A DNA stretch of 64,000 nucleotides from a virus: IMG/VR virus record IMGVR_UViG_3300045988_154953. One strand, written 5' to 3'. The notes below the pieces were generated by a model. It saw only the letters and a program-made list of their open reading frames with translations, did no database searches and was not told where the DNA came from. Positions 85 to 63,008 of this stretch are shown here, one piece after another. A program made the translations under genes and the position numbers. The first letter of the stretch is position 1. Every line of letters starts with the position of its first letter.

Positions 85-459
85 ATGAGAAAAAAAAATA
101 AAGAGCTTATTAGAAGATATAAATGTACAAAATGTGATTTTTCTACAATGTCTACTCATGAAGTAGCTAAGTGTAAAGTTTGTGGTGCAGAATTAAAACT
201 TATAGAAGAATATTATCACGATCCGAAAATGAGCTTAGGTGCTGTTGAAAATTCTAGAAATGTTCATTTACGGAAAGATGACAACGTGGTAATTCAGCAG
301 TCTAAGCCAACCAACACCCCTCATTGTCCAACTTGCGGATCAACTAATGTCCAGAAAATCTCCGGCATGAAGAGATGGCTTTCAGTAGGTTTATTTGGTC
401 TGGCTAGTAGTGATGTAGGAAAAACTATGGTTTGTAAGAAGTGCGGTTATAAATGGTAG
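85..459 (+). CDS. Zinc-ribbon protein (CTKC..CKVC and CPTC..CKKC pairs)
   Basis: 124-aa ORF with four CxxC motifs and a hydrophobic LSVGLFGLA segment; its 3' end is duplicated at 1487..1524. Confidence 0.6.
   Translation: MRKKNKELIRRYKCTKCDFSTMSTHEVAKCKVCGAELKLIEEYYHDPKMSLGAVENSRNVHLRKDDNVVIQQSKPTNTPHCPTCGSTNVQKISGMKRWLSVGLFGLASSDVGKTMVCKKCGYKW
421..458 (+). repeat. 38-nt direct repeat, copy 1 (3' end of ORF 85..459)
   Basis: aaaactatggtttgtaagaagtgcggttataaatggta matches 1487..1524 at 37 of 38 positions. Confidence 0.9.
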
Positions 460-2801: not shown

Positions 2802-3005
2802 TCATATAAATCGGTTACATTGGGTACAATTTAATCTGTTTCCACGGAGAGGACATGTACGGCAAACCATTGGAACTGATACAGCATATACAACAGTTGA
2901 ATTTTCTTCTAAGCGTGGCTTCGAAACCAGAGGTAGAAATTCCGAAACGTCAAATTGGTTTTGTAGGTCAGATTGATTAATCGTTTTTGGTAAAATAATA
3001 TTCAT
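2802..3005 (-). CDS. Small Cys-rich protein
   Basis: Start re-set to MNIILPK (AAGAAAGG upstream); C-terminal CRTCPLRGNRLNCTQC. Confidence 0.4.
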   Translation of the reverse strand: MNIILPKTINQSDLQNQFDVSEFLPLVSKPRLEENSTVVYAVSVPMVCRTCPLRGNRLNCTQCNRFI

Positions 3006-3258
3006 TTTGTCATTACCTTTCTTAATGGATAGATATTTATGAAGAAGTATGACCACAATAACAAAATGCCTAATCAATTAGGTTTTATTGTTATATAATC
3101 TTATGCTGATTACAAGCCACGTATATCATATAGATATACTATATTTCGATATGGATGTTTATTTGGCAAGACTTCCATTTTGTCTTAAATTTTAGATTTT
3201 ACAAGCTAAAATTTCATACTTCTATAAATCTGGAAGAATAGAAGAGTGGATATAATAA

Positions 3259-3289
3259 AAGAGTGGTTAATAAATAACCACTCTTAAAC
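3259..3289 (-). terminator. Intrinsic terminator after the toxN-like gene
   Basis: 11-bp perfect stem AAGAGTGGTTA/TAACCACTCTT followed on the minus strand by TTTATTAT. Confidence 0.65.
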
Positions 3290-3356
3290 ACATGGATTCA
3301 AACATTACAATATACAATGGTCATAATGAAGAATACGTACATATTCTATCGCATGA

Positions 3357-3899
3357 TTACGGCTGAGTCAAGTCGATTATTTGTGGATTATATAATTTGG
3401 CCAATTGTTCCATATATTTAAAATCAATACATCTTTTTGAAACAGTATTATCTGGATCACTATATTTTAAATTGTAAATAAATAAAGCTTTCTCGTCTAA
3501 ATCTAATGTGTTAATTACCTTTAATTCCATATTTAATAAATTAATATATTTACTTTTAGAAGATTCTGATTCAAAATTTCTATATGTATCTATCTTACTT
3601 TTCGCAAAATTATGAGTATACTTTTTAGGAACTGGAAACATGTAATTTAAATTTACAACAGCTATTAACCTAGAAGGATTTTTAGGGTCAAACAATTTAT
3701 AAAAATCTTTTTGTTGTCTCATATGTATATGACGTTTTTGAGGATGAGATACTTGTGTAATATAATATAAATCGCCCACTTCAAAAAGGACTCCAAAGAA
3801 AGGTTTATATTTGTCAGAACCATAATCCGTTCTTGGTATTCTGCTTTCAATATTTCTTAAATAATTTAAATAATCTTCATCTACATTAATCCACTTCAT
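3357..3899 (-). CDS. Type III toxin, ToxN/AbiQ-family endoribonuclease-like
   Basis: Blocks DYLNYLRNIESRIP, KPFFGVLFEVGDLYYITQVSHPQKRH and VVNLNYMFPVP match conserved ToxN/AbiQ blocks by eye; preceded by a tandem repeat array and attenuator hairpin. Confidence 0.75.
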   Translation of the reverse strand: MKWINVDEDYLNYLRNIESRIPRTDYGSDKYKPFFGVLFEVGDLYYITQVSHPQKRHIHMRQQKDFYKLFDPKNPSRLIAVVNLNYMFPVPKKYTHNFAKSKIDTYRNFESESSKSKYINLLNMELKVINTLDLDEKALFIYNLKYSDPDNTVSKRCIDFKYMEQLAKLYNPQIIDLTQP

Positions 3900-3918
3900 C
3901 TTGCGTCTCCTAATACAA

Positions 3919-3942
3919 TAGGAGCTGTAGAAACAGCCCCTA
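3919..3942 (-). terminator. Attenuator/terminator hairpin between the repeat array and the toxin gene
   Basis: TAGGAGCTGT-agaa-ACAGCCCCTA, 9 of 10 bp, about 20 nt upstream of the toxin ATG. Confidence 0.55.
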
Positions 3943-4040
3943 TTAAAACGATTTTTTACATGCTTCGTAACATCTATTAAAACGATTTTTTACATGCTTC
4001 GTAACATCTATTAAAACGATTTGACGGTTTCGTAACCGCT
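3941..4040 (-). ncRNA. Type III antitoxin RNA candidate: 34-nt tandem repeats (2 perfect plus 1 diverged)
   Basis: tattaaaacgattttttacatgcttcgtaacatc at 3941..3974 and 3975..4008, diverged copy at 4009..4040; same strand and immediately upstream of the toxin. Confidence 0.7.
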
Positions 4041-4068
4041 AAAGTAAGAGACTAAATCTCTTATCTAT

Positions 4069-4074
4069 ATTATA
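4069..4074 (-). promoter_or_regulatory. -10 box (TATAAT) candidate driving the repeat array and toxin
   Basis: Minus-strand TGTGTATAAT read directly about 30 nt upstream of the first repeat; weak -35. Confidence 0.35.
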
Positions 4075-4149
4075 CACAAATAACATATGAATAGATACTG
4101 TTAATGTTTACAATATATTCGCTGATAATATGCATAATTTTGTGCGATT

Positions 4150-4389
4150 TTACAACACCTCTTTAACATTAATATACCTGGATAATAATTCTATTTTTTG
4201 AGTATTTACTACAAAAAATTGATTATAACCAATTATTGTAACACCAGTTATTTTATCCGTATCAATATCTCGAAGAAGGACAATATTGTCATCAATCTCA
4301 TCTCCATATGAATTTTCTGTATTGGATATATTATAATATAACACATCAAATTTTTGATCATAATCAATTTTATTTAGAGTAGATGACAT
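4150..4389 (-). CDS. DUF2283-like small protein
   Basis: Start re-set to MSSTLNK; DVLYYNIS...DDNIVLLRDIDTDKITGVTIIG resembles DUF2283; overlaps the upstream ORF by 20 nt. Confidence 0.45.
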   Translation of the reverse strand: MSSTLNKIDYDQKFDVLYYNISNTENSYGDEIDDNIVLLRDIDTDKITGVTIIGYNQFFVVNTQKIELLSRYINVKEVL

Positions 4390-4651
4390 TACTGATTTCC
4401 TCATTAATATAGCAGGCGTATCCACTTTCATTCCCATTACATTCTTGAATAATATATTCACCAGTTTTATATTGATTCGACAAAACACTAATTGCTTCTT
4501 GCATACTATTATAAATACCTAATATCTCTTTAAAACGGATAGCAATATAACAATATCCATATTTTTTAAAAAAATCATTATAATGATTTAAAAAATAATG
4601 GAAGTCGTCTATTCTGTCAGTTTGTGTATATTCTTTTGTCATAATAGGCAC
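4370..4651 (-). CDS. Small protein, DUF5678-like N-terminal half
   Basis: GAGGAGG RBS; FLNHYNDFFKKYGYCYIAIRFKEILG pattern. Confidence 0.45.
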   Translation of the reverse strand: MPIMTKEYTQTDRIDDFHYFLNHYNDFFKKYGYCYIAIRFKEILGIYNSMQEAISVLSNQYKTGEYIIQECNGNESGYACYINEEISNVIYSK

Positions 4652-4680
4652 CTCCTCATATAATCAATGTTTTCTATTTC

Positions 4681-4717
4681 CTTATCAACCTAAACAGAAG
4701 TATGAGATAAGTTCATG
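4681..4717 (-). promoter_or_regulatory. Shared upstream element, copy A (CTTATC..GATAAG inverted repeat overlapping a TTGATA -35-like box)
   Basis: cttatcaacc...agaagtatgagataagttcatg, related to 5410..5467; 30 nt upstream of the start at 4651. Confidence 0.4.
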
Positions 4718-4854
4718 TAATAATTCTGCTTTTATTATACATCGGATTTGCATTTTATTTTATTCAATACACCTTATATTTAGTATTTAACTCTTGGCTA
4801 TTATTTATACAATATGATATTATAATATTATATTATTAGAAGAGGTGTACAAAA

Positions 4855-5717: not shown

Positions 5718-8700
5718 CTATTCAGACGTTATTGGGTGTTTATCATCGTGTATTTCACGACTAACATACTCTAAACCTTTGTATCCAAAGTAAATTATGT
5801 ATGTTGTCGGCATATTCAAAAAAAAGAGGGAATACATTCTATCCCTACCGACATTATTCTTTAATGATAAGTATCCAGCTATTCCACCGAGAGCAACTTT
5901 TAATATATCAACATGTTTTACAATCATATCTAATATATCAATAAATTTACCACCAGCATCAATAGCACTCTTAAGAAAATCAGACGATAATAGATCGTTT
6001 GACAGTTCTTCAAGTTTCGCCTTGGTCTGATCGATGGAATATTGGATTGATTCTTGATATTTTTCTTGTTCTCTTTGGGCTGATCCTGCACTATTTAACG
6101 CCTCTTCGTAACTTTTCTCTAAAAGTTCTGGGTTAGAAAGAGCAGCTGCTAAACTATTGCTTTGCTGTTTCCCGGCCAGGGCTTCTAAAAGACTGGCACG
6201 ATCTATATCATTCAAATCGCTCCATTTCTTACTTATGCCAAGGACTATATCATAAACGTCTTTATATGTATCTTTATCTTTCATAATATCAAAACCTGTA
6301 ATTCCTTTTACAAGAGATTGCAGTTTTGATGTTGATTTAATAAGACCGTCTGTGTCTTCCCCCATCTGGGAAAGCTCGGTTTCTGATCCACGCAAACGTG
6401 CGGAAACCACCTTCCACATATTACCTACTTTGTTGGGATCTTGTACAACAGAATTGGTTGCAGTTATAAGAGCCACCGATTTTTCAAGTGACGTATTTGC
6501 GGCATTAAATGCAGCTGCTGAACGTTGAAGGGCATCTCCAATACCTGAAGATGATATTGCTTCATTATTACTCACCTCATTGAATATATCCACAATATGT
6601 TCAGCTTGATCGGCTTCCATGTTAAAACCTTTTAATGTAGAGATAAGAGATTCATTAGCAGTATCAATATCTATATTATCTCCAACGTTTTTATAAAGTT
6701 GTGAAACTCTTGCGAGTTCTTTTGAATCTGGAATATTATATCCATTTTTGGCCCATGCTGCAGTTGCTGAAATTGTGTCAGAAATTGTACCACCAATATC
6801 TTTTGCTATATTAGCATAACTGCTAAAGTCTTTATAGATTTGAGAAGTACTAGCTTCTGAAACTTTTGCTAAATCTGTAATATCAGAGTTTAATTGAGTA
6901 ACTGTTGAAGCAGCCTCTTTAAACCAATCAAACACATCATACAAGCTCACCATACCGGCAATCTGAGAAGCAAGACCATACCATTGTTTCTCTTTGATTA
7001 CATCAATTAAACCTTTTCCAGATCTGCCAGCTTTAGTTTCATCATTCTGAATTTGTAATAATTTCTGATGAATCTCATCTAAACCTTTAGTAGAAATGCC
7101 TGATTCTAATTCACGAATTAATTCTTTTAAAGCTTCTTTGGCTGCTTTTGAATATCTAGGATTTTGTTCTAATGCCTGATTAATCTTAGCTATTTCTTTT
7201 TCAATAGAAACGCCTTTCATACCCTTAGCGGAAGAAGAAAAGTTTTGTACTTCCTGTGATGCTTTTTTGGCACTATCTTGTGCTTCTTTGAGAGTAGTTA
7301 TATCTTCTTTTGAAAGAATAGGTTTATCGCCAAGTTGTGCTTTAACTTTTTCCAATTTCTCAATAGCGGCGTTTAAATCATTTATTGCTTTTTGATAACC
7401 TTCGCTCATTTTGAAAGTATCTGAATTTTTTGTACTTTTCTTAACTTGGTTTTGATATTTCTTAATATCATCATCGATGCTTTTCATAGTAGACGCTTTA
7501 AAATTGCTAATTGCATCATTTAATTTCGCTATGGATTCCGTTGATCCGTTAGAAGCTGTTTCTAATCTTTTAATAACATCAACAAATTCACCCCAAGACG
7601 ATACAGGAATTTTCCCAAAATTCTCAGGAAGTGTAAGATGTTCAATTATTTCCTGCGCTTGTTTAAAAAGTGGAATTAATTCTTTTACTTTTTGCTCTTG
7701 ATTTTCAATTTCATTCGTCTTCTGATTTTTTCCGTAATCAGATGCTTTTAATGTATTTAGTTTACTAACAGCTGCTTCATACTCTTTAAGCGCCTTTACT
7801 GCTGTATCCCAATCATTTTTTAATTGTTTAGCTTCTGATATATTTTTAGCTGACTGCTCTTTCTGAGCCTTTTCATACGATCCAAATTCAGACTTTTTTA
7901 TTTTATAGATATCTCTAGCGGAGTAATAATCGTCTGCAGTAAATTCACTACCATCAGTTTTTTTCTTTCTAGCGACATAAATACCGTTTTGATCTTTTTC
8001 AGCAATCAAATCTCTTTGTGCTTTTAATTCTTCTGTTATATGACTTGTAACATCACCATATTTTTCTGATTTGGCAATTAAATCATTATACTGTTTAACT
8101 TGTTCCGAAATAGCCACTGCCAAGTCAGTTCCACCAAGCTTTTGCTGAGAAGGATTATTTGCTTTTAACTTTTCTTGTGCGAGACGTTGATATTCAGCAA
8201 TTAATTTCTCCAATTCAAGATATTTTTCCTCATTAGAAGAATTACGTCCTTGGTCATGTAATTTTGAAATAAGAGATTGAATTTTATTTTTTTTCTCAGA
8301 TAATTCAGATAAGTCATTTGTATTACTTACATATCTATCCTTACCTGGAATTTTTGTATATGTAGCTTCCGTTGCATCGGCTCTAATTTGATAACGATTT
8401 AATAAACGATTAGATTGCTCTATATTTTTTGCACGAGATTCTTCGGCCTTTGCTAACGCATTAGCATTTTTTACATCATCTTTCGTACCTTGCTTTAGAT
8501 AATATTCTTCAGCGGCCTTGTTCCTGGCTACTTCAATTTGTTGACCTTTTAAAAGAGTCTCGTTATTATTTCTCAGATATTGAGCCGTCTTATCAAGGAG
8601 ATTAACATATTCTTGTTGTGCATTGATTTGTGCATCAATTCCAGAAGTGGAAGCATTAGGAGATTTAGATAATATTTTCAGTTTTGTCTGTTGTAAATCT

Positions 8701-10463
8701 CTTAATTTATTTTCAGCAGATATGATCTCTTTTTCAAATCCTGCATAATCTGTAGATAAGTATTTTTGTATATCATATGTTCCTTTGTCATTCCTCTTAA
8801 AATACCAATCTTCAGTCTGACCATTATTTTTTTGAAATTTTGCAGAAAAAGAATCATCTCCAACTCTACCTTGTTGACTTAACAATTTCCATTTTTCAAT
8901 AGATTCTGTTGCATCTTTGTTAGCAGACTTAGCAAGAGACATGATGGTTTCAAAATCGTCTTTGGTGTTTTTTGCATATCCGCTGATACCAGAAGACATT
9001 CCTTCTCTTTCTGATTTTACTTTCTCGTCCGTTTTCTCAGCACTGTCAGTTACTTTCTTATTAGTATCAGAAAAAGCATTCTTATTTTCCGCGGCTTTTT
9101 TAGCACTCTTAGCAATCTGATCGAATAGAGCAGCTTCTTCTTGTAATTTAGATACAGACCCATCAACACTAGAAGCAACTTTATTGTTTGCTTCTACAAA
9201 CGACTCTTTGGCATTTGCAGCGTCTTTAGCAGACTGTTGTACTTTCTCTAAATCTGCTGATTCAGTTGATGGAGTAGAAGAGTCTTTCACGGGTGTTGAT
9301 TTCAATTTACTTAATTCGTCTTCAAGTATTTTTATTTTTTCAGTTAATTTATTTATCTCTTCTACAGAAGTAGTCACATTGAAACTATCAAATTTTGTAG
9401 ATAAATTGGTTGCAACAACTGAGAGTTCTTGAAGTTTTTCTATAATTAATTCAAGTTGTCCAACAATTTCCGTTAGATCTGTTTTGCCAAATAATCCGTC
9501 TAGTGGAGAAGCATCTTTTGAAGCGTTCATCTCGTTAAAAGCTCTGGTTACTTGAGACATAGCAGCAGAAGCTTCATTCCAGTAAGAAATATCTGTATAT
9601 TTTTTTAGTATATCTTTTCCGCCATATTGAGATTTTAATTCTTTTTGCATATTAGAAATGAACTTTCTATACGCTTGCAGTTTACTCATTGGCGTATCAA
9701 ATTGATTTATATCAAAATCAAAAAACTTGTTATTTACTACCTCTCCACCAACACCAGACATTTTAATTTCATTAAACAATCTTTGATAAGCCTGCAACGC
9801 ATTTGATATCTTAGATTGTACTTTTGCTTCCATCTCAGAATTGGAACCAAAATCAATGTTTAAATTAAGACCAATACCTTTTATACTTGATTGGAGTCCA
9901 TTAATAGCATTTTCAACCTGTTTAACTGTATTAAGCAACGGTGAGAATTCTTCTCCATCACCAACGTCAGAGAATACTTTTCTCATAGAAGATAAACTAG
10001 ATTCAATACCAGAAAATGCTGTTTGAATAGAAGATAATTTAACTGTAATATCTGTTGTGTTATCACTAGTGTTAATTAATTCTCTATTTATACTCGAAAT
10101 ATTATTACTTAGATTTGATAAAGAGTTGTCTATACTTTGAATAGAAGAAAGAAGTGACTTCGCACCAGATTCATTACCTAATGATCCAAATGCTTTTTGT
10201 AACATTTTTATACTTGATGCTGCTTCTGTTATCTCTTGATCTAACTTTTCAAATTGCTTAAAATCACCAGTACCTTTACCAAGATTATCAAGCATATTAT
10301 CAAGTTTTTTTATAGCACTATCAAGTGTTTTTGTATCAATGCCTAATTCGATTTTATGTTTTTCTTTTGTAAGTCCATCTATTTCTTTCTCAAGTCCTGA
10401 TAGCTCACTTCTTAAATCATTTATATCTAATTCAATTTTAACTTTCCAATCGGCTGATGCCAT
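5718..10463 (-). CDS. Tail tape measure protein
   Basis: 1581 aa; long coiled-coil-like repetitive N-terminal part; block AISSSGIGDALQRSAAAFNAANTSLEKSVALITATN typical of the TP901-type tape measure core. Confidence 0.85.
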   Translation of the reverse strand: MASADWKVKIELDINDLRSELSGLEKEIDGLTKEKHKIELGIDTKTLDSAIKKLDNMLDNLGKGTGDFKQFEKLDQEITEAASSIKMLQKAFGSLGNESGAKSLLSSIQSIDNSLSNLSNNISSINRELINTSDNTTDITVKLSSIQTAFSGIESSLSSMRKVFSDVGDGEEFSPLLNTVKQVENAINGLQSSIKGIGLNLNIDFGSNSEMEAKVQSKISNALQAYQRLFNEIKMSGVGGEVVNNKFFDFDINQFDTPMSKLQAYRKFISNMQKELKSQYGGKDILKKYTDISYWNEASAAMSQVTRAFNEMNASKDASPLDGLFGKTDLTEIVGQLELIIEKLQELSVVATNLSTKFDSFNVTTSVEEINKLTEKIKILEDELSKLKSTPVKDSSTPSTESADLEKVQQSAKDAANAKESFVEANNKVASSVDGSVSKLQEEAALFDQIAKSAKKAAENKNAFSDTNKKVTDSAEKTDEKVKSEREGMSSGISGYAKNTKDDFETIMSLAKSANKDATESIEKWKLLSQQGRVGDDSFSAKFQKNNGQTEDWYFKRNDKGTYDIQKYLSTDYAGFEKEIISAENKLRDLQQTKLKILSKSPNASTSGIDAQINAQQEYVNLLDKTAQYLRNNNETLLKGQQIEVARNKAAEEYYLKQGTKDDVKNANALAKAEESRAKNIEQSNRLLNRYQIRADATEATYTKIPGKDRYVSNTNDLSELSEKKNKIQSLISKLHDQGRNSSNEEKYLELEKLIAEYQRLAQEKLKANNPSQQKLGGTDLAVAISEQVKQYNDLIAKSEKYGDVTSHITEELKAQRDLIAEKDQNGIYVARKKKTDGSEFTADDYYSARDIYKIKKSEFGSYEKAQKEQSAKNISEAKQLKNDWDTAVKALKEYEAAVSKLNTLKASDYGKNQKTNEIENQEQKVKELIPLFKQAQEIIEHLTLPENFGKIPVSSWGEFVDVIKRLETASNGSTESIAKLNDAISNFKASTMKSIDDDIKKYQNQVKKSTKNSDTFKMSEGYQKAINDLNAAIEKLEKVKAQLGDKPILSKEDITTLKEAQDSAKKASQEVQNFSSSAKGMKGVSIEKEIAKINQALEQNPRYSKAAKEALKELIRELESGISTKGLDEIHQKLLQIQNDETKAGRSGKGLIDVIKEKQWYGLASQIAGMVSLYDVFDWFKEAASTVTQLNSDITDLAKVSEASTSQIYKDFSSYANIAKDIGGTISDTISATAAWAKNGYNIPDSKELARVSQLYKNVGDNIDIDTANESLISTLKGFNMEADQAEHIVDIFNEVSNNEAISSSGIGDALQRSAAAFNAANTSLEKSVALITATNSVVQDPNKVGNMWKVVSARLRGSETELSQMGEDTDGLIKSTSKLQSLVKGITGFDIMKDKDTYKDVYDIVLGISKKWSDLNDIDRASLLEALAGKQQSNSLAAALSNPELLEKSYEEALNSAGSAQREQEKYQESIQYSIDQTKAKLEELSNDLLSSDFLKSAIDAGGKFIDILDMIVKHVDILKVALGGIAGYLSLKNNVGRDRMYSLFFLNMPTTYIIYFGYKGLEYVSREIHDDKHPITSE

Positions 10464-22533: not shown

Positions 22534-24240
22534 TTAATTATGTTTGAATAAATTTCCATATCTGCTTGGTGTATTATCTTTTGAAGGTGCTGCAAATATC
22601 TTTTGATTTACTACAGGTTTTTCTTCTGGTTTACCGTTAAAGGCGAACTGTCCACCACTTGTAATATAATCAGCAAATACTGACTTTAACTCTTTCTCTA
22701 AATCAGTGAGAGAGTAGTTATCCATTTCAGAAACTAATTTTGCGTATGCTTCATTCTTAAAGTTACCCTCTTCATCCTTTTCTGTAAGAACAGAGTATTT
22801 TTTATCAGAAATAATTGCTTCTTTCTGAGCATGAATCTCTGCATTTTGATACTTAGAAAGTTCTTCTTTAATAGCAGCATAATTTGAACGCATATCATTA
22901 ATTTCTGCATACTCCGAATCTGTTAAATACTCTTTATGTAATGCATAACGTTCTCCATCGAAAGCTACATTATCATTTTCTTTTGTATATTTCTGGCCAT
23001 AAATCTTATCTCCACGCCAATTCTCATACACAAAATATGTATCATATACACTACTTATATAATACCAGTCGTCATCTGTGGACTCATATGAACTTAAAAG
23101 GTTGTACAATGCATAACGAATATCATCATGAGAAATTTCAAAGGTACGTGTCATTTTTTCAAAAGTCTGTTCTTCTGGTTCATCAGAAGTCTCACCTTCC
23201 TCTGTTTCGGAAGTGCTTTCATCATCATTTGTATCATCTGTCTCACCTTCATCTCCAGAAGGTTCTGTAGAATCATCCTCAAAGGCTTCTTTAAATTTTG
23301 CCTCTAATTCTTCATCTGACAATTCTGAGTATTCAAATGTTACATCTTCAACAGATATATTATATTTCTTCAGTAACTCCTCAAATTTATTCATTTCTTC
23401 TTCATTTCCTCCTTCCTTAGATGGTATTTGTTGAGCAGAAAATTGCTCTTTATTATTGAAACAAGTAGATTCTAATTTTTCGAGTCTTTCTTGTAGTTCA
23501 ATCATTTTTGATTCATAATTAGAAAACATGCTGTTAGTTTCTGAGCTGAAATCAGATAATTTAATATTGGAACCTTGCATGCCGGGTTGAACAGAATCTC
23601 CCTGTGGTGTTTTCCCCAGAATAGTAACTCCTGAAAACCAAAAATCTTCAATATTTAAGAATTTCTGTTTCGCATCATAACTGAGTTCTCGAATTGAAAG
23701 CTCTACAGATACAAAACATTCACCTTCTCTTTCTAATATTTCGGCAGCCTTAGAATACTCTTCAAAAATATATCCATCAACTTCACAATACGTTTTCTTT
23801 TTGTCTTTATCATAGACTAATTTAGCATTGCAGCTTTCTGGTATAATACCAATAGGATATTCGTCATAAACTAGTTCGCCATCTTCATCTTCATGCATGT
23901 TGTGGCTATAAAATTCCCATTGTCCATCAGGATTCTCATCTGTTACAACTTTATGAATATAACCAAGAATTGGTCTATTACTAAATGATGGAAGAGCAGC
24001 TTCCATTGTATCCTCATCAATATTTGATCCATTTACGTTAAGATTGGTATGACATGATTGTAAATGTACCGGAAGTAATCCTTCTGTATCTTTATTATCT
24101 TTATCAAATTTGACCTGTCCATGAACTTGTACGACTAACGGTTGACCAGATTTTTCTGCGCTAAAATGTGTAGAACGTTTATATTTATTTAAATAAAAAT
24201 CATATAAATCTTCTATAAATAAAAGTTTTTTCTTTGACAT
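22534..24240 (-). CDS. Scaffolding protein candidate (possibly with an N-terminal protease-like domain)
   Basis: 568 aa; highly acidic Glu/Asp/Ser/Thr-rich centre and coiled-coil-like segments; located between portal and capsid genes. Confidence 0.45.
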   Translation of the reverse strand: MSKKKLLFIEDLYDFYLNKYKRSTHFSAEKSGQPLVVQVHGQVKFDKDNKDTEGLLPVHLQSCHTNLNVNGSNIDEDTMEAALPSFSNRPILGYIHKVVTDENPDGQWEFYSHNMHEDEDGELVYDEYPIGIIPESCNAKLVYDKDKKKTYCEVDGYIFEEYSKAAEILEREGECFVSVELSIRELSYDAKQKFLNIEDFWFSGVTILGKTPQGDSVQPGMQGSNIKLSDFSSETNSMFSNYESKMIELQERLEKLESTCFNNKEQFSAQQIPSKEGGNEEEMNKFEELLKKYNISVEDVTFEYSELSDEELEAKFKEAFEDDSTEPSGDEGETDDTNDDESTSETEEGETSDEPEEQTFEKMTRTFEISHDDIRYALYNLLSSYESTDDDWYYISSVYDTYFVYENWRGDKIYGQKYTKENDNVAFDGERYALHKEYLTDSEYAEINDMRSNYAAIKEELSKYQNAEIHAQKEAIISDKKYSVLTEKDEEGNFKNEAYAKLVSEMDNYSLTDLEKELKSVFADYITSGGQFAFNGKPEEKPVVNQKIFAAPSKDNTPSRYGNLFKHN

Positions 24241-24531: not shown

Positions 24532-26085
24532 TTATCTCCTATTTCGCGATTTGTCACCTTCTGTACTAATCTCCGTATCACTTTTGGTCGGTGCTCCGCC
24601 TTCATCTGTTGCACCACCAGATTGTGTTGATGCAGTTTGTAAAGGTGTAAATCTTTCGTTGAGATTTAATACATCTTTTTCAAGATAATTTAATGCCAAT
24701 GTATCTAATTCACTAAATCCATTTAACGAATTAATGGCCAAAGAGCTAACATACCCATAATTTAAATCTTTTTGCATTGATTCTTTAAACGCATCTTTAG
24801 TATATGCGGATACTTCGAAGAATTTAACTTTTGCTGGATTACTAACAAGATATGAAAGCATACGATTTACCCATCCTTGAACTTGTCCTAATAAACTAGA
24901 AATAGCGAGTTCTGTATCAGCGCGTGTCGCCGCTCGGAAAGCCTCAGCACCTGAAATACTGGATGAGTTGAGTATTTGCGCTCCGCCAGAAGTATTTAAT
25001 ACTTCTTTTGTTGCTTTCTGAATTTTAGTAGTATCAGATGCTTGGTCATCAGAAAATGATAATACATCTAATGGAATAGGAGTGATAACATCACCAACAT
25101 AATCAGGTAATGAATAAGATAATTTTTTATAATATTCTAATGCAGTATTTATATCAACAGCCCAATCATCTGGTATATCTGTTCCATCGATTCTTGGGAG
25201 AGTAGCAACAATCAATTTATATATTTGCTGTGCGTCTGCGACAGCTTGAATATCAGCTAAATCAAGTAAGTTAATTAAATCCAAAAACAAACCACTATAT
25301 GGTGGACATACTGTTTCCCATGACTCTAATCGGTATTTCGTACATAAAGCGTATTCATCTGGCATTTGTTGCCATTTGTTTGAGTTATCTCCACCATAAG
25401 CTGAATACATAGAAGAAAGTGGTTCACCTAAATATTCAATTAAATATTCATATTTTTTGTAATAACTCATATCCACCGCAAACGAAAAATCACCTGTAAA
25501 ATATTTACCAGTAAGCTTACAATATTCTGGTGGAAGTTGAAGTACAAATATTCCTGTTTCATCTATCCAACAACATCCATAATACACATCTTCTATAAAA
25601 TTATTAATAAATACTGACAGAAACTCATGCTGTAAATTCATTCTATCTAACCATTGTAAAGATTCATAATATGACTGTAAAATTGAATCTGGATCATTGT
25701 CTTCTGTTAAACTGAATGGTGGTACAACAGTACGTGCATTTAAATCAAACATTGTAGCATTGTACATAATTAATCTGAAATAGACTTGTGATCTGTAGAA
25801 TAAATATCTGGATAAATTTCGAAGATTATTTTCATTAGAAGAGATGTTCTGAAGATATGATATAACAGTATCTTTGTTATAAGAAGATAGTGTTGTCTGT
25901 CTGGTTGTTTTTGTTACATCTCGAATTTGTTTAAATGCTTGATTAGTTTTCTCTGAATTCTTAGCATACCATTCCTTCATTTCTGCTACAGTATGTTTGG
26001 GAGTAGATATAGAATTATTTGAGGTTGTAGAAGGTGCACTTTCTGTCACCTTTGGTTTATTCTTGCTTCCCTTTGGTCGTCCCAT
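24532..26085 (-). CDS. Portal protein candidate
   Basis: 517-aa ORF immediately downstream of the large terminase, AGGAGGTG RBS; call is positional. Confidence 0.65.
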   Translation of the reverse strand: MGRPKGSKNKPKVTESAPSTTSNNSISTPKHTVAEMKEWYAKNSEKTNQAFKQIRDVTKTTRQTTLSSYNKDTVISYLQNISSNENNLRNLSRYLFYRSQVYFRLIMYNATMFDLNARTVVPPFSLTEDNDPDSILQSYYESLQWLDRMNLQHEFLSVFINNFIEDVYYGCCWIDETGIFVLQLPPEYCKLTGKYFTGDFSFAVDMSYYKKYEYLIEYLGEPLSSMYSAYGGDNSNKWQQMPDEYALCTKYRLESWETVCPPYSGLFLDLINLLDLADIQAVADAQQIYKLIVATLPRIDGTDIPDDWAVDINTALEYYKKLSYSLPDYVGDVITPIPLDVLSFSDDQASDTTKIQKATKEVLNTSGGAQILNSSSISGAEAFRAATRADTELAISSLLGQVQGWVNRMLSYLVSNPAKVKFFEVSAYTKDAFKESMQKDLNYGYVSSLAINSLNGFSELDTLALNYLEKDVLNLNERFTPLQTASTQSGGATDEGGAPTKSDTEISTEGDKSRNRR

Positions 26086-26245: not shown

Positions 26246-28294
26246 TTAGATATATGATTTACGTTTCGGTGTTCTGATTGGGAGGAGAGATGCAAGATTA
26301 GTAGAAGGTTTACGTTTTCTATTCATAATAGATTTTCTACGTTCATCCATAAGAGCTTTTGCGGCTAATGCGGCTGTATACGCACGGTCGTCATGCATTT
26401 TATTCGCTTTTTCTGGTGTTAGCTCAAAAGAATCCTTACCAGATTCTCTTTTCTTTCGAACCATATTTACAAGTTCTTCTTTTAAAGCATCTATGTTTAC
26501 TAATGCCAATTCATCTTGCCAATCTAGTTTAATCACCTTAGTTTTTACAGATTGTACATGATTTAACTCTTCATCTAATTGTCTATCAAATTCTTCTTTT
26601 GATAATTTTAATCGTTTTAATCTATTAGTGATTTTTTCTTTTTCAGAATTCAATTTCTTTTCATCCACATCAAAAACTGTCAAATTTCCTTTTCCATCAT
26701 ATGGAGCAGTGAAGCTAATTTTGTCCTGATTCATTAATTCTATTAAGGCTTCATACATTTCAGATTTATATGCAGTAGGAGATATTAGATGAACTTTATC
26801 TACTGCATTAGGAAATTTTTTTACATAGTCAGCTGAATACTCTTTATCAATTAATCCTCTGTGTGTAATTCCCGCCTTGTCTGTCCAGTCCGGCATAAGA
26901 TAATCTGCGATATTTACACCGGAACCACCACTACCTGCATCAATAAAAACACCAACAATATTCCCATATGCATCTGCACCACCATTGTAATCAAGTATAA
27001 CTTGTTTTAAATATTCAACCTGATCTGGCGTTTGCATTGGTGATTTGGTTTTCTTTCCAACATCCACTAAATTAATACAATTAACTAATCGCATTCTTTT
27101 ATCAATAGATTCATCTGGCATTATATAATCATAAATTTCCCCAACCAATATAACGCTATTATCTCTACTTCTAGCAGGATCGTAACATATAACGAAACGT
27201 TTATCTCCTGTATCATTATATAGAAGAGGTTTTCTTATTTCTTCATTACGTGTAATAACACCTCTTTTTATAATCGCATTTGCACCAGCAGAAGTAGTAA
27301 ATTGACAATAATATTCTCGTCTGGCCTTTTCAGGATTTGTCCTCATTTCTGATTGAACAGTTGAACGAGACAGAAGAGGAGCAATCAATTCGCCATGTAA
27401 AGTAGGTTTAAATGCTAATTCACAATCTATATGTAATACACAAAAATCAGGATCGCCCATAATTTGCTTCTTTGCAAAATCTCGATATAAGGCAAAAAAT
27501 TTTGTATCTGTGCTTGAAGCAGAACTTATATAAATTTTCTGATATGGCATATCTTGTGGAAAACAACGCTGTCTAATAGGGTCAATTGATTTACCACTTT
27601 CATCTTTACCTGTTTTCATACTTCTGTTAACAGCAGCAAAAGCACCATAAACATTCATCATTTCTTCCGATAAGAAACCACTTTCATCAAAAACCACTGA
27701 GCCACGGTAACCTCGTTTGGCATCTATATTAGAATTCAACGTTTGTGTCATAGCACCATTATATAAAGAATAATTAAATCCATTAGACGAATGTGAGAAA
27801 CCATCACCTGCTGCATTTTTTATCTCAATTTCATTTTTAAATACTTTGCCTGTAGAACCTGTGAAAGTATCAATGTTATCATTTGCAAGACGCTCCAAAG
27901 TAGTAAATGTTTGCTCTGCCTGTGAACCACTACCACTAGCAATATATGTCCAGTTATTGTTAAAGCACATACCTTTAGACATAATAGATAAATCGATCAC
28001 TGTTGATTTTCCCCATCCACGAGTACATACTAATAATGAATTAGGACATATCCATGTTTTTTGGACTGCTAATGTCTGGCTATCAAGAAGTTCTATATTA
28101 AACATCAAATCAATGAATCGTACTGGATTGCATTGAAAGTATTTTTGCATTTTAGCTATTTCCAGCAAAGATTCAATTTTTCTTGTAGACATAGGATAAA
28201 CAATCGGTTTTACAAAAATTCCATAATCACTATAAAAATCTTTATCATAATCTAAACTAAAATCATCATTATATGGAAGTATTATCTGACTCAT
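26246..28294 (-). CDS. terL: Terminase large subunit
   Basis: Walker A-like CTRGWGKST, Walker B-like VVFDESGF, C-terminal nuclease-like region; start re-set to MSQIILP after GAGGAGG. Confidence 0.85.
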   Translation of the reverse strand: MSQIILPYNDDFSLDYDKDFYSDYGIFVKPIVYPMSTRKIESLLEIAKMQKYFQCNPVRFIDLMFNIELLDSQTLAVQKTWICPNSLLVCTRGWGKSTVIDLSIMSKGMCFNNNWTYIASGSGSQAEQTFTTLERLANDNIDTFTGSTGKVFKNEIEIKNAAGDGFSHSSNGFNYSLYNGAMTQTLNSNIDAKRGYRGSVVFDESGFLSEEMMNVYGAFAAVNRSMKTGKDESGKSIDPIRQRCFPQDMPYQKIYISSASSTDTKFFALYRDFAKKQIMGDPDFCVLHIDCELAFKPTLHGELIAPLLSRSTVQSEMRTNPEKARREYYCQFTTSAGANAIIKRGVITRNEEIRKPLLYNDTGDKRFVICYDPARSRDNSVILVGEIYDYIMPDESIDKRMRLVNCINLVDVGKKTKSPMQTPDQVEYLKQVILDYNGGADAYGNIVGVFIDAGSGGSGVNIADYLMPDWTDKAGITHRGLIDKEYSADYVKKFPNAVDKVHLISPTAYKSEMYEALIELMNQDKISFTAPYDGKGNLTVFDVDEKKLNSEKEKITNRLKRLKLSKEEFDRQLDEELNHVQSVKTKVIKLDWQDELALVNIDALKEELVNMVRKKRESGKDSFELTPEKANKMHDDRAYTAALAAKALMDERRKSIMNRKRKPSTNLASLLPIRTPKRKSYI

Positions 28295-29579
28295 CAGAAC
28301 CAACCTCCTCAATGTTTTCATCCTCTGATTCATCGGAAAATACAGAATATAATTGTTTTAAATCCCTTAAATTAGGTTTTGTATCTATATTTTGTTCTTC
28401 GATGTAATCTTTCAAATCTATATTTTCTTGCAACAAAATACGATTTATTTCTTTATAAGAATCACGTTCTTTTCGAAGTACTTGATTATCTTGACGCATT
28501 TCAGCAACCATATCTGACCAATCAGATTCATCCAAAGCTAATTGCTTCATTATAGACGCATCACTTATTTCCTGAACTTGCTGCATGCCTCTACAAGTTG
28601 CTATATCAAATCCGTTAACACGGCCATCTCTAAGATTTAAGTCTTTTATTTTCTTAATTTTACCTGTCCAAGTGTTTTCGCCTTTCTTAGCATTTTTATT
28701 ATTTAATAAAGAAATACAACTTTCTTTGGCCAAACTTGTAATGGTACTTGTTAATTTTTGTTTACTGTCTTGGAGAGATTTGATTGTTGCAGAATTTTTA
28801 TCAAGATTTTTGTAATCGGACATTAATTGAGCAATATTATTATCAATTTTAGAAATTTGTAAGAATCCACGAACAATAGAAATAGCAGAAGCATTACGCA
28901 TCATATCATCATTTTCATCACCACCGGCATCCAATAATCCTAATAATTGAGAATACAAAAATGGTTGATCTCCGATAGATTCATGTTCAAAAGGATCGTA
29001 TCCCAACAATCGTGTAACATCTTTTTTGTTTTTTGTGTAATCGTCATATGTATCTATTCCAGCATGTTCTTCTATAATTGTTTTTGAATCTTTTTCGTCT
29101 TCGTACACAACTTTCTCTTTAAACATGTCAGAATCTTCCCATGTCATACCAATATAATTCACCATAGCAACATTTTTTATATAGGCATTCCATGGATTAT
29201 GTTTGACTTTCCCAGCAACTAAATTTTCAGATTCTTGTACACTTGAATCCCATAAACTATATAAAAATGGTTTATTTAATAACTTAAGAGCAGCGCATAC
29301 AGAATCTTTTGTTGGTTCATGTTCTTCACCATTTTTATCTACTCTAAGTGCAATTTTTCGTACACATTCCACGCAAATTGGTGTTACACCAGTTTTATTA
29401 TTTGGATCTGTACTTACATAAAATTTTCCTTTATCTTTTAATGTATCGCAACATTGACACCTTGAACTATTTTTTAATTTCTCTAAATCTGATTTTAATT
29501 TTTCGTTTTCATATTTCAGTTGAGCAGCTGTTAATTTCTTAGGTTGCTCAGATTTTGCTGTAGCCAAATTAACAGCCAC
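28269..29579 (-). CDS. Zinc-finger/coiled-coil protein upstream of terL (small terminase role possible but unsupported)
   Basis: 436-aa ORF; CQCC...CVEC motifs; exact start uncertain (GTG abuts the RBS, TTG 4 codons downstream). Confidence 0.5.
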   Translation of the reverse strand: MAVNLATAKSEQPKKLTAAQLKYENEKLKSDLEKLKNSSRCQCCDTLKDKGKFYVSTDPNNKTGVTPICVECVRKIALRVDKNGEEHEPTKDSVCAALKLLNKPFLYSLWDSSVQESENLVAGKVKHNPWNAYIKNVAMVNYIGMTWEDSDMFKEKVVYEDEKDSKTIIEEHAGIDTYDDYTKNKKDVTRLLGYDPFEHESIGDQPFLYSQLLGLLDAGGDENDDMMRNASAISIVRGFLQISKIDNNIAQLMSDYKNLDKNSATIKSLQDSKQKLTSTITSLAKESCISLLNNKNAKKGENTWTGKIKKIKDLNLRDGRVNGFDIATCRGMQQVQEISDASIMKQLALDESDWSDMVAEMRQDNQVLRKERDSYKEINRILLQENIDLKDYIEEQNIDTKPNLRDLKQLYSVFSDESEDENIEEVGSDESDNTSI

Positions 29580-34539: not shown

Positions 34540-35778
34540 TTAATCTAATAAATCAGCCATAGCAGCTGTTTCACTACGTTCTGTTTTCTGTAATTGAACA
34601 TACCCAAACTTCTCATGTCCAGCTAATTTCTGAACAGTTGACATCAATCCATTATTCATTCTAAAGAGAGCAGAGTCAGTCTGCTTAAAATCTCCGTTAA
34701 TCCATAACGCAGAACCTTCACCAACTCTACCAATTAATAATTGAACATGTTCTTTTGTAAGATTTTCTGCCTCGCTAACATAAATAATTGTATTTTTAAT
34801 ATCTCTACCACGGATATATCCTAAGTGTTCAACTTCAATTGTTCCTGCCATCATTTGCATCTCAAGACCAGTTTCTCCACCAAGATGATCAGCTAACGGC
34901 ATAGCATAAGGCAACAGTTTTTCAAGTTTTGACCCAGGTAAAAATCCTAATTCATTGGCATCTTTTACACCAATAGCATTACGAATATAAAGGAGTTTAT
35001 CAAATTTTCCTTCATCGATTAATTTCAACGCATTGGCAATCATTAAATAGTCTTTACCACTTCCAAATTTTCCTGAAATTACTTTGATTGTCACATCTTT
35101 ATCTTGAAGCATGTTAAACGCTAATACTTGATGTGGATTTCTAGGTTTAATCTTACCCATATAATGACTATTAATAGTTTTGTATGATACAACTACATAC
35201 TCTTCTCCATTCCATTTTCTATAATCAACAACTTCACCATCGAATTTGCGGATAATTAAATACTCATTGAGAATAGAATCATAAATATTTTCTTTAGTAT
35301 GCAAATAAAAATAACTCATTTCTTCATCAGAAAGAGTTACGTCCTTATAGCCTTTATATTCATCTATATTTTTTACTAAGTTAATCTCAGTTACACTTTT
35401 GGTTGGTAAATTAAAAACGTTGCTAGAAATAAAAGAACAATTCAAATCGTCTGTACAAACAATAATAGGAGATGTGTTTTCATTATAATAAGATGCTGCT
35501 GCCAAAATAATATTATCTGGTGTTTCATCTAAATATAAATTTTCAACAATATCCTTAATAGCTTTTGTTGTAGGAACAACTGTATACAATCCAACATGTT
35601 CTTTCAACAATCTAGCAATAGCTCGTGCTTGATATTTTACTTCGCCATCTTTTCTGGCAGAAGTTTTAATATTCTCAATTTCTTCAAGTGTTTTTTGTGA
35701 TATTACAAATGGCTCTTTAAACGCTTCCTTTTGTAAAGTTAATAGAGCATTAGTATCTAGGAATAAGGTATATTCCAA
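34540..35778 (-). CDS. phoH: PhoH-like ATPase with N-terminal PIN-like domain
   Basis: FLDTNALL (PIN-like), GKFGSGKDY P-loop, IIYVSEAENLT and INGDFKQTD PhoH blocks; TTG start 8 nt after AAAGGTGG. Confidence 0.8.
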   Translation of the reverse strand: MEYTLFLDTNALLTLQKEAFKEPFVISQKTLEEIENIKTSARKDGEVKYQARAIARLLKEHVGLYTVVPTTKAIKDIVENLYLDETPDNIILAAASYYNENTSPIIVCTDDLNCSFISSNVFNLPTKSVTEINLVKNIDEYKGYKDVTLSDEEMSYFYLHTKENIYDSILNEYLIIRKFDGEVVDYRKWNGEEYVVVSYKTINSHYMGKIKPRNPHQVLAFNMLQDKDVTIKVISGKFGSGKDYLMIANALKLIDEGKFDKLLYIRNAIGVKDANELGFLPGSKLEKLLPYAMPLADHLGGETGLEMQMMAGTIEVEHLGYIRGRDIKNTIIYVSEAENLTKEHVQLLIGRVGEGSALWINGDFKQTDSALFRMNNGLMSTVQKLAGHEKFGYVQLQKTERSETAAMADLLD

Positions 35779-35796
35779 TATGAAAACCACCTTTCA

Positions 35797-55923: not shown

Positions 55924-56262
55924 ATGATACTACACCCTTATAAATCAAATTCTGGACGGGATTTAATTTTTGAATATTTAGATTCTCTGCCAAACAACGA
56001 ACGTATTGATGGCTTGTCAGTTATAGAACATATGGAAAACGGAGAATTTGATAAAATCAATTTCAAACGATGGCAAAAGAAAGTATATGAAGTATATTTT
56101 CAAAAGCATAACCGTATATTTTATGTAACAGTAGATAAAGCTAATATATATTTGCTTCACGCTTGCCGAAAACAGAAAAATAAAACAGAAAAGCAAGATG
56201 CAGATATTGTCAAAAAGCGAGCAAAAGAACTAGGCAAAGAATTAAATAAAACATTTATTTAG
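55924..56262 (+). CDS. RelE/HigB-superfamily toxin (phage Gp49-like family)
   Basis: SGRDLIFEYLDSLP...KVYEVYFQKHNRIFYVTVDKANIYLLHACRKQKNKTEKQDADIVKKRAKE fits the Gp49-like pattern; followed by an HTH partner 12 nt downstream. Confidence 0.65.
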   Translation: MILHPYKSNSGRDLIFEYLDSLPNNERIDGLSVIEHMENGEFDKINFKRWQKKVYEVYFQKHNRIFYVTVDKANIYLLHACRKQKNKTEKQDADIVKKRAKELGKELNKTFI

Positions 56263-62069: not shown

Positions 62070-63008
62070 ATGAAGAACATCGTGAAAATGAACAATACAA
62101 CAGCAGCTACAAACAACAACGCAAAAATGTATGATTTAGTTATGAACTCAACTAAACAGGTTGGATCAAAAGTATACGCATATATTCCAACGGAATTATT
62201 ATTTGTAGATCCAGAATTTCAGAGAGATTCTAATTCTGCTAAATTCCAGAGGAAAGTAAAAATTCTTAAAGAAAAATGGGATATTAACAAAATGGATGCA
62301 TTAAGAGTCGTACCTCATCCAGAAGAATATAAATTTTCTATTATTGACGGAAGTCATCGCGATGAAGTAGCTATCGAACTTGGAATACCTGGTCTTGAAT
62401 GTGAGATTGTTTTTGGATTACCAGATGACCCAGAAAAAAGGCGTGTTGAAGAAGCAAAATTATTCTCAACACAGGATAATGAGAAAGACGTATTAACTCC
62501 TGTTGAGAAACATAAGGCATATGTATTGTGTGGAGTAAGAGAAAATTGTATTTTAGATAAATTAGTTAGAAAATACAATATTCCAATTAAAAAGAATCCT
62601 TCCCATGGTCGTGTACCAGTCGGAGCACTCGCTGGGTTTACAAAATCATTGTATATTATTAAGAAAGATGGAGAATCCATGATGGATGATATTTTTTATA
62701 TTCTCTGTGAAAGTAGATGGAATATTGCATCCAAAGGATTAGGTGCATTAACTATTACATCTGTTTATCATGTACTTTCATATCATCCTGATTATAGAAA
62801 TGAAATTAAAACAGTAATGATTGATTACTTTAAAGAGATTGAACCAGAAAACTTTTTTGCAGAAGCTTCAGTTAAGTATTCAAAGCGAACATTAACACAG
62901 AGCGAAAGACTTACGGTATATCTTGAAGATGTTGTTTGTGAGCATTTAGATATTGAAAGAAGCACAAGTACAAAGAAAATTCTTAGTAAGTCAAAAATTT
63001 CAGCATAA
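62070..63008 (+). CDS. ParB N-terminal-domain (ParB/Srx nuclease-like) protein
   Basis: LLFVDPEFQRD and IIDGSHRDEVAIELG (DGxHR) motifs. Confidence 0.6.
   Translation: MKNIVKMNNTTAATNNNAKMYDLVMNSTKQVGSKVYAYIPTELLFVDPEFQRDSNSAKFQRKVKILKEKWDINKMDALRVVPHPEEYKFSIIDGSHRDEVAIELGIPGLECEIVFGLPDDPEKRRVEEAKLFSTQDNEKDVLTPVEKHKAYVLCGVRENCILDKLVRKYNIPIKKNPSHGRVPVGALAGFTKSLYIIKKDGESMMDDIFYILCESRWNIASKGLGALTITSVYHVLSYHPDYRNEIKTVMIDYFKEIEPENFFAEASVKYSKRTLTQSERLTVYLEDVVCEHLDIERSTSTKKILSKSKISA

Follow-up and report, generated by a model that had tools for sequence, protein, structure and literature searches.

A probable toxIN-family type III toxin–antitoxin cassette carried as a moron by a large Firmicutes gut phage

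A stretch of viral DNA of 64,000 nucleotides (IMG/VR record IMGVR_UViG_3300045988_154953; 31% G+C; the whole stretch is called the window below) was analysed for a complete type III toxin–antitoxin (TA) locus of the toxIN/AbiQ type, which an earlier note, made from the letters alone, had described in canonical order on its minus strand. The description was borne out by profile hidden Markov model (HMM) search, predicted fold, conserved architecture and repeat covariation. With a probability of about 0.85, the locus is a functional toxIN-family cassette carried as a self-contained moron by a large Firmicutes gut phage; every toxIN feature that can be tested on sequence was found, with the exception of two of the four catalytic residues. 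Systems of this type are mostly described as means by which bacteria or plasmids defend themselves against phages. Toxin family, architecture, conservation and pseudoknot covariation were computed in this analysis; processing, neutralisation, stoichiometry and trigger are proposed by analogy with ToxIN_Pa, ToxIN_Bt, ToxIN_Ec and AbiQ.

The toxN/abiQ-family endoribonuclease toxin gene occupies 3357..3899 on the minus strand (180 amino acids; ATG start at 3899, end at 3357). Its product was matched by Pfam PF13958 (ToxN_toxin) with E 2.7e-42 and 145 bits over profile positions 1–159 of 159 (family cut-off, 25 bits), this being the HMM check that the earlier note had proposed, and by the PADLOC AbiQ model with E 3e-21; the three conserved blocks picked out by eye in that note were aligned to the blocks of ToxN_Pa, ToxN_Ec and ToxN_Bt. 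Search of PDB sequences with the toxin returned ToxN_Ec, ToxN_Pa and ToxN_Bt, and a profile of 33 sequences found AbiQ in addition; NCBI annotates the homologues as 'type III toxin-antitoxin system ToxN/AbiQ family toxin'. Judged by these matches, the open reading frame (ORF) is a full-length ToxN/AbiQ toxin.

Structure prediction, likewise proposed beforehand, was carried out with AlphaFold2 on the 33-sequence alignment; mean predicted local distance difference test (pLDDT) score 91.2, predicted template modelling (pTM) score 0.85. The best four PDB matches of the model (Foldseek) were the four solved ToxN/AbiQ toxins, with template modelling (TM) scores of 0.69–0.82 and E 5e-9 to 1.5e-7: 2xd0 (ToxN_Pa), 0.75/0.82; 7d8o (ToxN_Ec), 0.72/0.79; 4ato (ToxN_Bt), 0.69/0.73; and 4glk (AbiQ). 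As modelled, the protein has the ToxN/AbiQ fold, in which helices are added to a beta core like that of Kid/MazF. CptN (4rmo) was matched far below these four structures (TM 0.50/0.57, E 1.5e-3) and MazF at noise level; membership in cptIN or tenpIN was rejected, as Pfam gave ToxN_toxin alone and the CptN structure is only a distant match. The catalytic residues of ToxN are Lys33, Thr52 (Ser51 in AbiQ), Ser53 and Lys55 (PMC8860590; PMC5086642), and Ser51 of AbiQ is the one residue whose mutation abolished activity (PMC5086642). In the profile alignment Lys32 of the window toxin stands opposite catalytic Lys33, and Ser51 opposite Thr52 of ToxN and Ser51 of AbiQ; both are invariant across the 33 homologues.

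The layout of the locus was read in RNA sense on the minus strand of 3200..4300. The predicted promoter has its −10 region at 4069..4078 (minus), with TATAAT at 4074..4069 inside TGTGTATAAT and TGTG before it; the box is read directly on the minus strand, as the earlier note had it, and the block TGTGTATAATATAG is kept 33–38 nt before unit 1 in related loci. At the predicted transcript start stands a 5' leader hairpin (4046..4062, minus; AAGAGAUUUAGUCUCUU, AAGAGAU-UUA-GUCUCUU; 7 bp, −5.6 kcal/mol), absent from the earlier list. Most related loci have one at the same place with another stem sequence, and its role may be something such as stabilisation of the 5' end. The repeat array follows, and after it the inter-genic hairpin, a presumed leaky terminator (3916..3945, minus; UAAUAGGGGCUGU-UUCU-ACAGCUCCUAUUG; 13 bp with 2 G-U; −18.5 kcal/mol, z −6.1), the 5' arm of which overlaps the last UAAUAG linker. 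It had been reported as an imperfect hairpin at 3919..3942; it is there, and that wording understates its 13 bp. Equivalent G+C hairpins with T-runs were found in all related loci except L034, with differing stem sequences (GGAGCUG.., GGAGCC.., GGAGCAAG.., AGAGAUAG.., GGUCGCAU..) at a constant position, and therefore look like a conserved terminator. The toxin ATG lies 17 nt after the stem (about 20 nt had been given), with a Shine-Dalgarno (SD) sequence AGGAG between (3907..3911, minus; 7 nt before ATG; AGGAGA in related loci). The cassette is closed after toxN by a strong intrinsic terminator, not listed earlier (3259..3285, minus; an 11-bp stem, then TTTTATTAT; −16.4 kcal/mol, z −5.5), which was called by the terminator scan.

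Three ToxI-like units make up the array. Tandem Repeats Finder gave a period of 34 and 2.4 copies of 100% identity at 3940..4022, and further repeat search added a diverged first copy, up to 4040. Unit 1 (4010..4040, minus; 31 nt; AGCGGUUACGAAACCGUCAAAUCGUUUUAAU) is diverged, with stem 1 CGG/CCG, stem 2 ACGA/TCGT and a short 1b-2b loop UCAAA; unit 2 (3976..4009, minus; 34 nt; AGAUGUUACGAAGCAUGUAAAAAAUCGUUUUAAU) has stem 1 AUG/CAU, stem 2 ACGA/UCGU and an A-rich 1b-2b loop; unit 3 (3942..3975, minus; 34 nt; AGAUGUUACGAAGCAUGUAAAAAAUCGUUUUAAU) is identical to unit 2. The two perfect units and the diverged one seen at 3941..4040 in the earlier note are thus present at 4040..3942, the diverged unit being of 31 nt, not 34. 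The unit motif occurs three times in the 64-kb window, always in the array, against 0.00 expected (100 shuffles). Units 2 and 3 agree in 34 of 34 positions with the third unit of a toxIN array found on a chromosome (L066, L068; Lachnospiraceae-type context). Rfam scan of 3000..4700 with E up to 10 gave matches at chance level, none on the repeats; the RNA is therefore not recognised by any curated family model.

Folding of the unit was examined by covariation in a set of 29 distinct units, which were aligned without ambiguity. Under the pseudoknot pairing 94.8% of the cells were paired, and changes on both sides were observed in 5 of the 8 pairs; the covariation score was 0.373 against 0.154 in shuffles, none of the 500 shuffles reaching it, and pairing dropped to 17–55% when the partner strand was slid. 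Stem 1 (3 bp) occurs as AGG/CCU, AUG/CAU, CGG/CCG, UGG/CCA, GGG/CCC and AAG/CUU. Stem 2 (4–5 bp) is formed by the stem-1 loop (U)ACGA with downstream UCGU(A); in heterogeneous arrays the middle unit has ACAG/CUGU, AUAG/CUAU or ACGG/CCGU, and orphan arrays have ACAA/UUGU or AUGA/UCAU, the compensating strand being always downstream of the A tract of the same unit. In a register test on 20 informative units 80 of 80 pairs were Watson-Crick with the downstream partner; when the upstream neighbour was taken as partner, the 80 pairs included 38 Watson-Crick and 19 wobble. Folding of each unit as an H-type pseudoknot, which had been proposed as a check, is supported by these data. The other register, in which the A tract would be the tail and the stem-1 loop would pair to the upstream UCGU, was ruled out (38/80 vs 80/80 Watson-Crick), and a whole-leader minimum free energy (MFE) fold in which neighbouring units pair conflicts with the compensatory pattern of the heterogeneous arrays. 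A middle unit with stem 2 ACAG/CUGU between ACGA/UCGU units was observed in L007, L008, L009, L010, L011, L012, L066 and L068; the window array is without such alternation. It is kept across toxins of 68–78% identity and may stop neighbouring units from mispairing while they fold.

The order of elements in the window family, 1a-2a-1b-loop-2b-tail, is that described for ToxI (PMC3401426; PMC5086642). For calibration, three plasmid-borne loci were used, of P. atrosepticum type, lactococcal and from C. botulinum: P. atrosepticum-type ToxI reads AGGU..CGC..ACCU-UAAGU-GCG-GGACGAAAAUCC and the lactococcal antiQ type GGUG..CUC..CACC-AUCAAGU-GAGA-AUCAAAAAAGC; in both, as in the C. botulinum array of the same element order, the A-rich cut site is placed in an 11–12-nt tail after stem 2b. 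The A run of the window family joins stem 1b to stem 2b as a loop; after stem 2b comes a tail of just 7 nt, UUAAUAG. The A-rich tract stressed in the earlier note is accordingly present, in the 1b-2b loop and not in the tail as in ToxI_Pa and antiQ. ToxN recognises and cuts single-stranded overhangs (PMC8860590). Since the A tract is an inter-stem loop and not a single-stranded tail, the likely processing site is the UUAAUAG linker, and a cut there, at UUA|AUAG in the first place, is given somewhat better than even odds; the site may therefore differ from those of known ToxN enzymes. Cutting at UUA|AUAG would give a 5' tail AUAG+AGG, parallel to AUCC+AGGU of ToxI_Pa, and transcription from the promoter of the L027 clade, TTGACA-17-TATACT, is expected to begin within the TTAAT|AG linker that precedes unit 1. 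The A tract itself would be a structural loop, plausibly one that makes A-minor or triplex contacts of the kind suggested for TenpI (PMC12283969).

From these parts and by analogy with the characterised systems the following course is proposed. A constitutive promoter (−10 at 4074..4069) would drive a leader RNA of the 5' hairpin and three units of about 34 nt, each of which would fold by itself into an H-type pseudoknot with the A-rich tract as connecting loop; the 13-bp hairpin 3945..3916 would halt most transcripts, so that antitoxin RNA would exceed toxN mRNA. ToxN, as an endoribonuclease, would cut the precursor in the single-stranded linker UUAAUAG, most likely at UUA|AUAG, and the processed pseudoknots would then hold it in an inactive RNA-protein assembly that is closed (cyclic). 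If transcription of the cassette fell, for example because a superinfecting phage shut it off, the labile RNA would decay, and the freed ToxN would cleave cellular and viral RNAs and abort the infection. The benefit to the phage, protection of the lysogen or infected cell against competing phages, is the least certain step.

Several observations weigh against a functional cassette of this kind or against parts of the course proposed. In the profile alignment His52 stands in place of Ser53 of ToxN, and Gln54 in place of catalytic Lys55, with Lys55 and Arg56 of the window toxin adjacent; with this non-canonical active site the catalytic detail, activity or specificity of the clade may differ, and the window ToxN clade may have a catalytic detail or specificity of its own. 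The −35 is poor (TATCTA at about 4097..4092, minus), for which reason the toxIN promoter was not called by the consensus promoter scan; the U-tract at the inter-genic hairpin is weak, and the hairpin was not called by the terminator scan. As neither element was called, conservation across loci was relied on instead. The MFE fold of the single unit was no better than shuffles (z −0.06, ViennaRNA); as pseudoknots lie outside what ViennaRNA models, this fold is uninformative, and the test was made by covariation instead. The A tract (GUAAAAAAUCG) contains AAAAU, which resembles the ToxN_Pa site AA|AU; a cut inside the A tract, suggested by this resemblance, is the somewhat less likely alternative. 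Finally, no integrase, repressor pair or replication module was found in scans of about 50 ORFs of the window, and defence of a lysogen is therefore a conjecture.

Relatives were sought in IMG/VR, species-representative genomes, exact-protein look-ups and PLSDB plasmids. IMG/VR gave 4 close loci and then, with the profile query, 26 loci; species-representative genomes gave 3 loci with a single-protein query, the chromosomal contexts having come through exact-protein look-ups. Every toxN homologue fetched, viral, chromosomal or plasmid, has a −10 box, usually a 5' hairpin, 2–3 units of 31–35 nt, a hairpin and an SD sequence, and at least 26 viral loci retain the full architecture across 47–78% toxin identity. 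The repeat RNA consensus AGAGGUU(A/G)CGAAGCCUACCAAAAUCGU(A/U)UUAAU is common to the window, plasmid and chromosomal copies. Chromosomal toxins of the clade (P0013, P0016, P0106; Lachnospiraceae) have 68–74% identity to the window ToxN, that of the L066/L068 locus being 74% identical; on chromosomes the clade occurs as a solitary insertion between glycolysis genes and also in a defence island with Abi_2, restriction-modification (R-M) genes and a retron-like or group II reverse transcriptase. On the small C. perfringens plasmid pZ1323HCP0016-5 (NZ_CP148656.1) the toxin is 51.5% identical and the RNA is of the same family. In GenBank phages tblastn with the window ToxN found only the Clostridioides 'phage' pCD1602_4, at 25.6% identity. 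The earlier note had treated a full copy in a phage as unusual; the copy is real, and less unusual than implied, given at least 26 IMG/VR loci, the C. botulinum phage D-1873 and the enrichment of AbiQ in gut phages.

Arrays of the same ToxI RNA family were also observed alone in IMG/VR contigs: L037 5364-5393(-), L039 1324-1413(+), L043/L045 ~4700-4870(-) and L061 425-490(+). They have 2–3 units, each with its own compensating stem 2, and no toxN was found by tblastn within the fetched loci. Each of the arrays of L037 and L039 comes with a TTGACA/TATAAT promoter, a 5' hairpin and a terminator of its own; that of L043 adjoins an anti-repressor, a Holliday-junction resolvase and a virion protein, and that of L061 a homologue of window ORF 22534..24240 (phrog_3313). 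A composite array was observed at L054 330-519(+), in which about 1.9 ToxI-like units of 34 nt run directly into another, unrelated repeat of 38 nt, UAAAAUCAGGUGUUCCACCACCAGAAGUGUGAGGCUG, present in 3.2 copies; no toxin gene was found in this 5.3-kb locus, and the array may be a multi-antitoxin decoy. The antitoxin-only arrays look like counterparts of PhiTE pseudo-ToxI and are candidate phage decoys against the window ToxN clade. Assignment of the window array itself to this pseudo-ToxI class was rejected, as an intact toxN follows it. A decayed copy was observed at L040 1194-1459(-), where a single repeat unit precedes toxN in three reading frames (frameshifted); phage-borne toxIN can therefore lose toxN by frameshift while the RNA unit stays.

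Comparison with the characterised systems gave the following. ToxIN_Pa (P. atrosepticum pECA1039; 2XD0/2XDD) and ToxIN_Ec (7D8O) share with the window the Pfam family, the predicted fold, the order promoter, tandem repeats, hairpin, toxin, and an H-type pseudoknot RNA; a putative 5' tail of the form AU-NN precedes stem 1a both in ToxI_Pa and in the window. They differ from it in toxin sequence (about 17–28% amino-acid identity), in the array (at least 5.5 units of 36 nt vs 3 units of 31–34 nt), in the place of the A-rich run (3' tail in ToxI_Pa vs 1b-2b loop), in the length of the tail (~12 nt vs 7 nt), in the active site (Ser53 replaced by His and Lys55 by Gln in the window) and in the carrier (plasmid vs phage). 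ToxIN_Bt (B. thuringiensis pAW63, 4ATO), also from Firmicutes, has 2.9 copies of a 34-nt repeat (PMC7781912) vs 31+34+34 nt in the window; the window toxin profile aligns to ToxN_Bt over the full length at about 20% identity, and ToxN_Bt cuts A|AAAA in the tail (PMC5086642), whereas the window A run lies inside the pseudoknot. In AbiQ/antiQ (L. lactis, 4GLK) the essential Ser51 (PMC5086642) aligns to the invariant Ser51 of the window toxin, and antiQ has about 3 repeats of 35–36 nt and a terminator, as in the window layout; the toxins have about 19–28% identity, the unit sequences are unrelated, and the antiQ tail AUCAAAAAAGC holds the cut site A|AAA, unlike the window. ToxI direct repeats in aligned ToxI sequences are of 31–46 nt, and the window units fall within this range.

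Closer to the window are the toxIN loci of the C. perfringens plasmid and of Lachnospiraceae chromosomes, which belong to its toxin clade and repeat RNA family; unlike these copies, that of the window lies in a phage tail-gene region. A 208-kb C. botulinum plasmid, related to D-1873, carries a toxin 28.6% identical to that of the window and a different repeat family. Blower et al. (2012) described toxIN loci in Lachnospiraceae, Ruminococcus, Roseburia and Eubacterium, and one on the C. botulinum converting phage D-1873, a plasmid prophage (PMC3401426). Viral tenpN genes were described by Nadig et al. (2025), with no other type III system reported in phages according to these authors; tenpIN is a different toxin family, and its viral repeats could not be delimited (PMC12283969), vs a clear-cut array in the window. 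AbiQ is among the systems enriched in gut phage genomes in a 2024 survey preprint (bioRxiv 10.1101/2024.10.26.620412). In the literature covered, toxIN on a prophage is thus represented by one described locus, next to the poorly delimited viral tenpN (PMC3401426; PMC12283969).

By its gene content the window is phage DNA, as had been claimed: tape-measure protein, 5718..10463; portal, 24532..26085; large terminase, 26246..28333; a GH25 endolysin and a second endolysin. No DNA match was obtained in GenBank phages for the locus (blastn) or for 20 kb of the window (megablast), and the phage is therefore unrepresented among deposited phages. The toxIN cassette lies in the tail-gene area, directly after the tape-measure gene and on the late-gene strand. 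A toxin of 97% identity was found on a 207-kb human-gut metagenome contig, ENA ERZ4567219 NODE_42 (L005), with the same order of YomU-like tail tube, tape measure, small ORFs and toxN. A blastn comparison with L005 gave 97% identity over the tape-measure region as far as window position 6927, where similarity is lost (window 5718..6927 vs L005 7529..9199; the alignment stops for the C-terminal ~400 codons); a recombination break point is therefore placed inside the tape-measure gene, beside the accessory region. The only shared part there is a 1,461-bp block (3245..4702, minus) of 94% identity, with both flanks unalignable, which holds a small DUF2283-like ORF, toxIN and the terminator. As just this 1.46-kb block is shared between diverged flanks, the cassette, with its own predicted promoter and terminator, is by its layout a moron in a mosaic accessory region, in line with the accessory island named in the earlier note. 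In L005 a PemK toxin gene stands just downstream of toxIN in place of the genes of the window. The small overlapping ORFs 4150..4488(-) and 4370..4651(-) inside the shared block gave matches to phrog_36767 and, weakly, to DUF2283; in L012 a homologue of one of the two stands immediately before toxIN.

As to the use of the cassette to the phage, exclusion or abortive infection is ranked first, immunity to host toxIN second and maintenance of a prophage or phage-plasmid third, and these roles are not mutually exclusive. The defence-island homologues (Abi_2, R-M) and the moron architecture fit exclusion or abortive infection. The main benefit might instead be counter-defence, over-produced ToxI neutralising a chromosomal ToxN of the host and the linked toxN being a passenger or RNA processor; by analogy this is possible, and we regard it as doubtful. 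It would agree with the identity of units 2 and 3 (34/34) to chromosomal unit 3 of L066 and L068, where ToxN is 74% identical, with the antitoxin-only arrays of viral contigs (L037, L039, L043/L045, L054, L061), some in clear phage context, and with the precedent of PhiTE pseudo-ToxI (discussed in PMC3594212). However, a pure decoy needs no toxN, and here an intact gene with all family-invariant residues is kept; it is presumed, moreover, that the RNA neutralises a toxin of only 74% identity, and in a presumed host. Also tentative is a wider picture in which gut Firmicutes phages and their hosts use one ToxI RNA family: the phage would be immune to host toxIN and impose its own ToxN on competitors, the antitoxin-only arrays of other phages would be decoys, and the clade would cut at the new site UUA|AUAG. 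If so, identity of the phage unit with a host chromosomal unit would make the phage immune to abortive infection by host toxIN.

Somewhat less probable again is an addiction module, in which killing of segregants would stabilise a prophage or phage-plasmid. The analogy is with ToxIN_Bt on pAW63, which promotes plasmid retention (PMC4615649), and the other toxIN carriers among deposited phage or phage-like records are large and plasmid-like (D-1873 (PMC3401426), the 208-kb C. botulinum plasmid and pCD1602_4); the window has a ParB-like protein (62070..63008) and a Gp49/HigB toxin (55924..56262), and the related contig L005 a PemK toxin beside toxIN. Against these stand the scanned window ORFs, which hold no replication or partition system or integrase beyond the weak ParB-like match, the position of the cassette in the tail-gene region like a classic moron and away from maintenance genes, and the solitary chromosomal insertion of the same clade, where addiction is irrelevant. 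That the cassette is a non-functional hitch-hiker, recently acquired from a host and unused by the phage, appears very improbable: the region is mosaic and recombination-prone, and L040 with its frameshifted toxN and one repeat shows that decay happens, but the ORF, units and hairpins of the window are all intact, the cassette is found at 94–97% identity in a second phage contig, and the full architecture persists over 47–78% toxin identity in no fewer than 26 viral loci. A functional toxIN-family cassette is the reading retained, with exclusion or abortive infection as its first-ranked, tentative use.

Further genes of the window and of the surroundings of toxIN were recorded as follows. The ParB-like protein gave a weak match (E 8e-9 to a PHROG). 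ORF 34540..35790 (minus) encodes a PIN-domain and PhoH fusion (PF13638 + PF02562), a potential RNase or NTPase accessory gene. ORF 55924..56262 (plus) encodes a Gp49/HigB-family (RelE-like) toxin domain protein (PF05973, E 9.7e-14) and probably marks a second, type II, TA module in the same phage. A small protein that ends in a split zinc ribbon (CPxCGSxxIKKI...G..G......GK...C..CG..W) is encoded at 85..459(+), in a single copy in 64 kb; it gave no Pfam family above cut-off. The protein was found near toxIN elsewhere (L010 6115-6432(-), L015 4151-4672(-), L027 3616-4125(-), L066 9140-9517(-)), its gene being usually convergent and 0.1–3 kb downstream of toxIN, in several phage clades and at the solitary chromosomal cassette; an obligatory third component was rejected, since the gene is absent from about two thirds of the locus types. 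A Cys-rich small ORF (..CPLRxNRLNCxQCNRF) downstream of toxN is common to the region 2802..3077(-)/2855..2980(+) of the window and to L010 5465-5930; the opposite strand of the 2802..3077 region holds a C-terminal remnant of a 147-aa protein of L010, and the window copy looks truncated.

Taken together, the well-supported RNA model and the documented spread among large gut phages are new here, while the toxIN family itself was already known. A known system is extended to a new carrier and habitat; current understanding is not overturned, and a specialist would not be surprised. The value of the locus lies in a covariation-supported ToxI variant with the A tract inside the pseudoknot, and in a well-defined toxIN clade that circulates among large gut phages, Lachnospiraceae-type chromosomes and a clostridial plasmid. 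In such phages a phage-borne defence could double as immunity to host toxIN, and the natural antitoxin-only arrays of other phages are candidate anti-ToxIN decoys.

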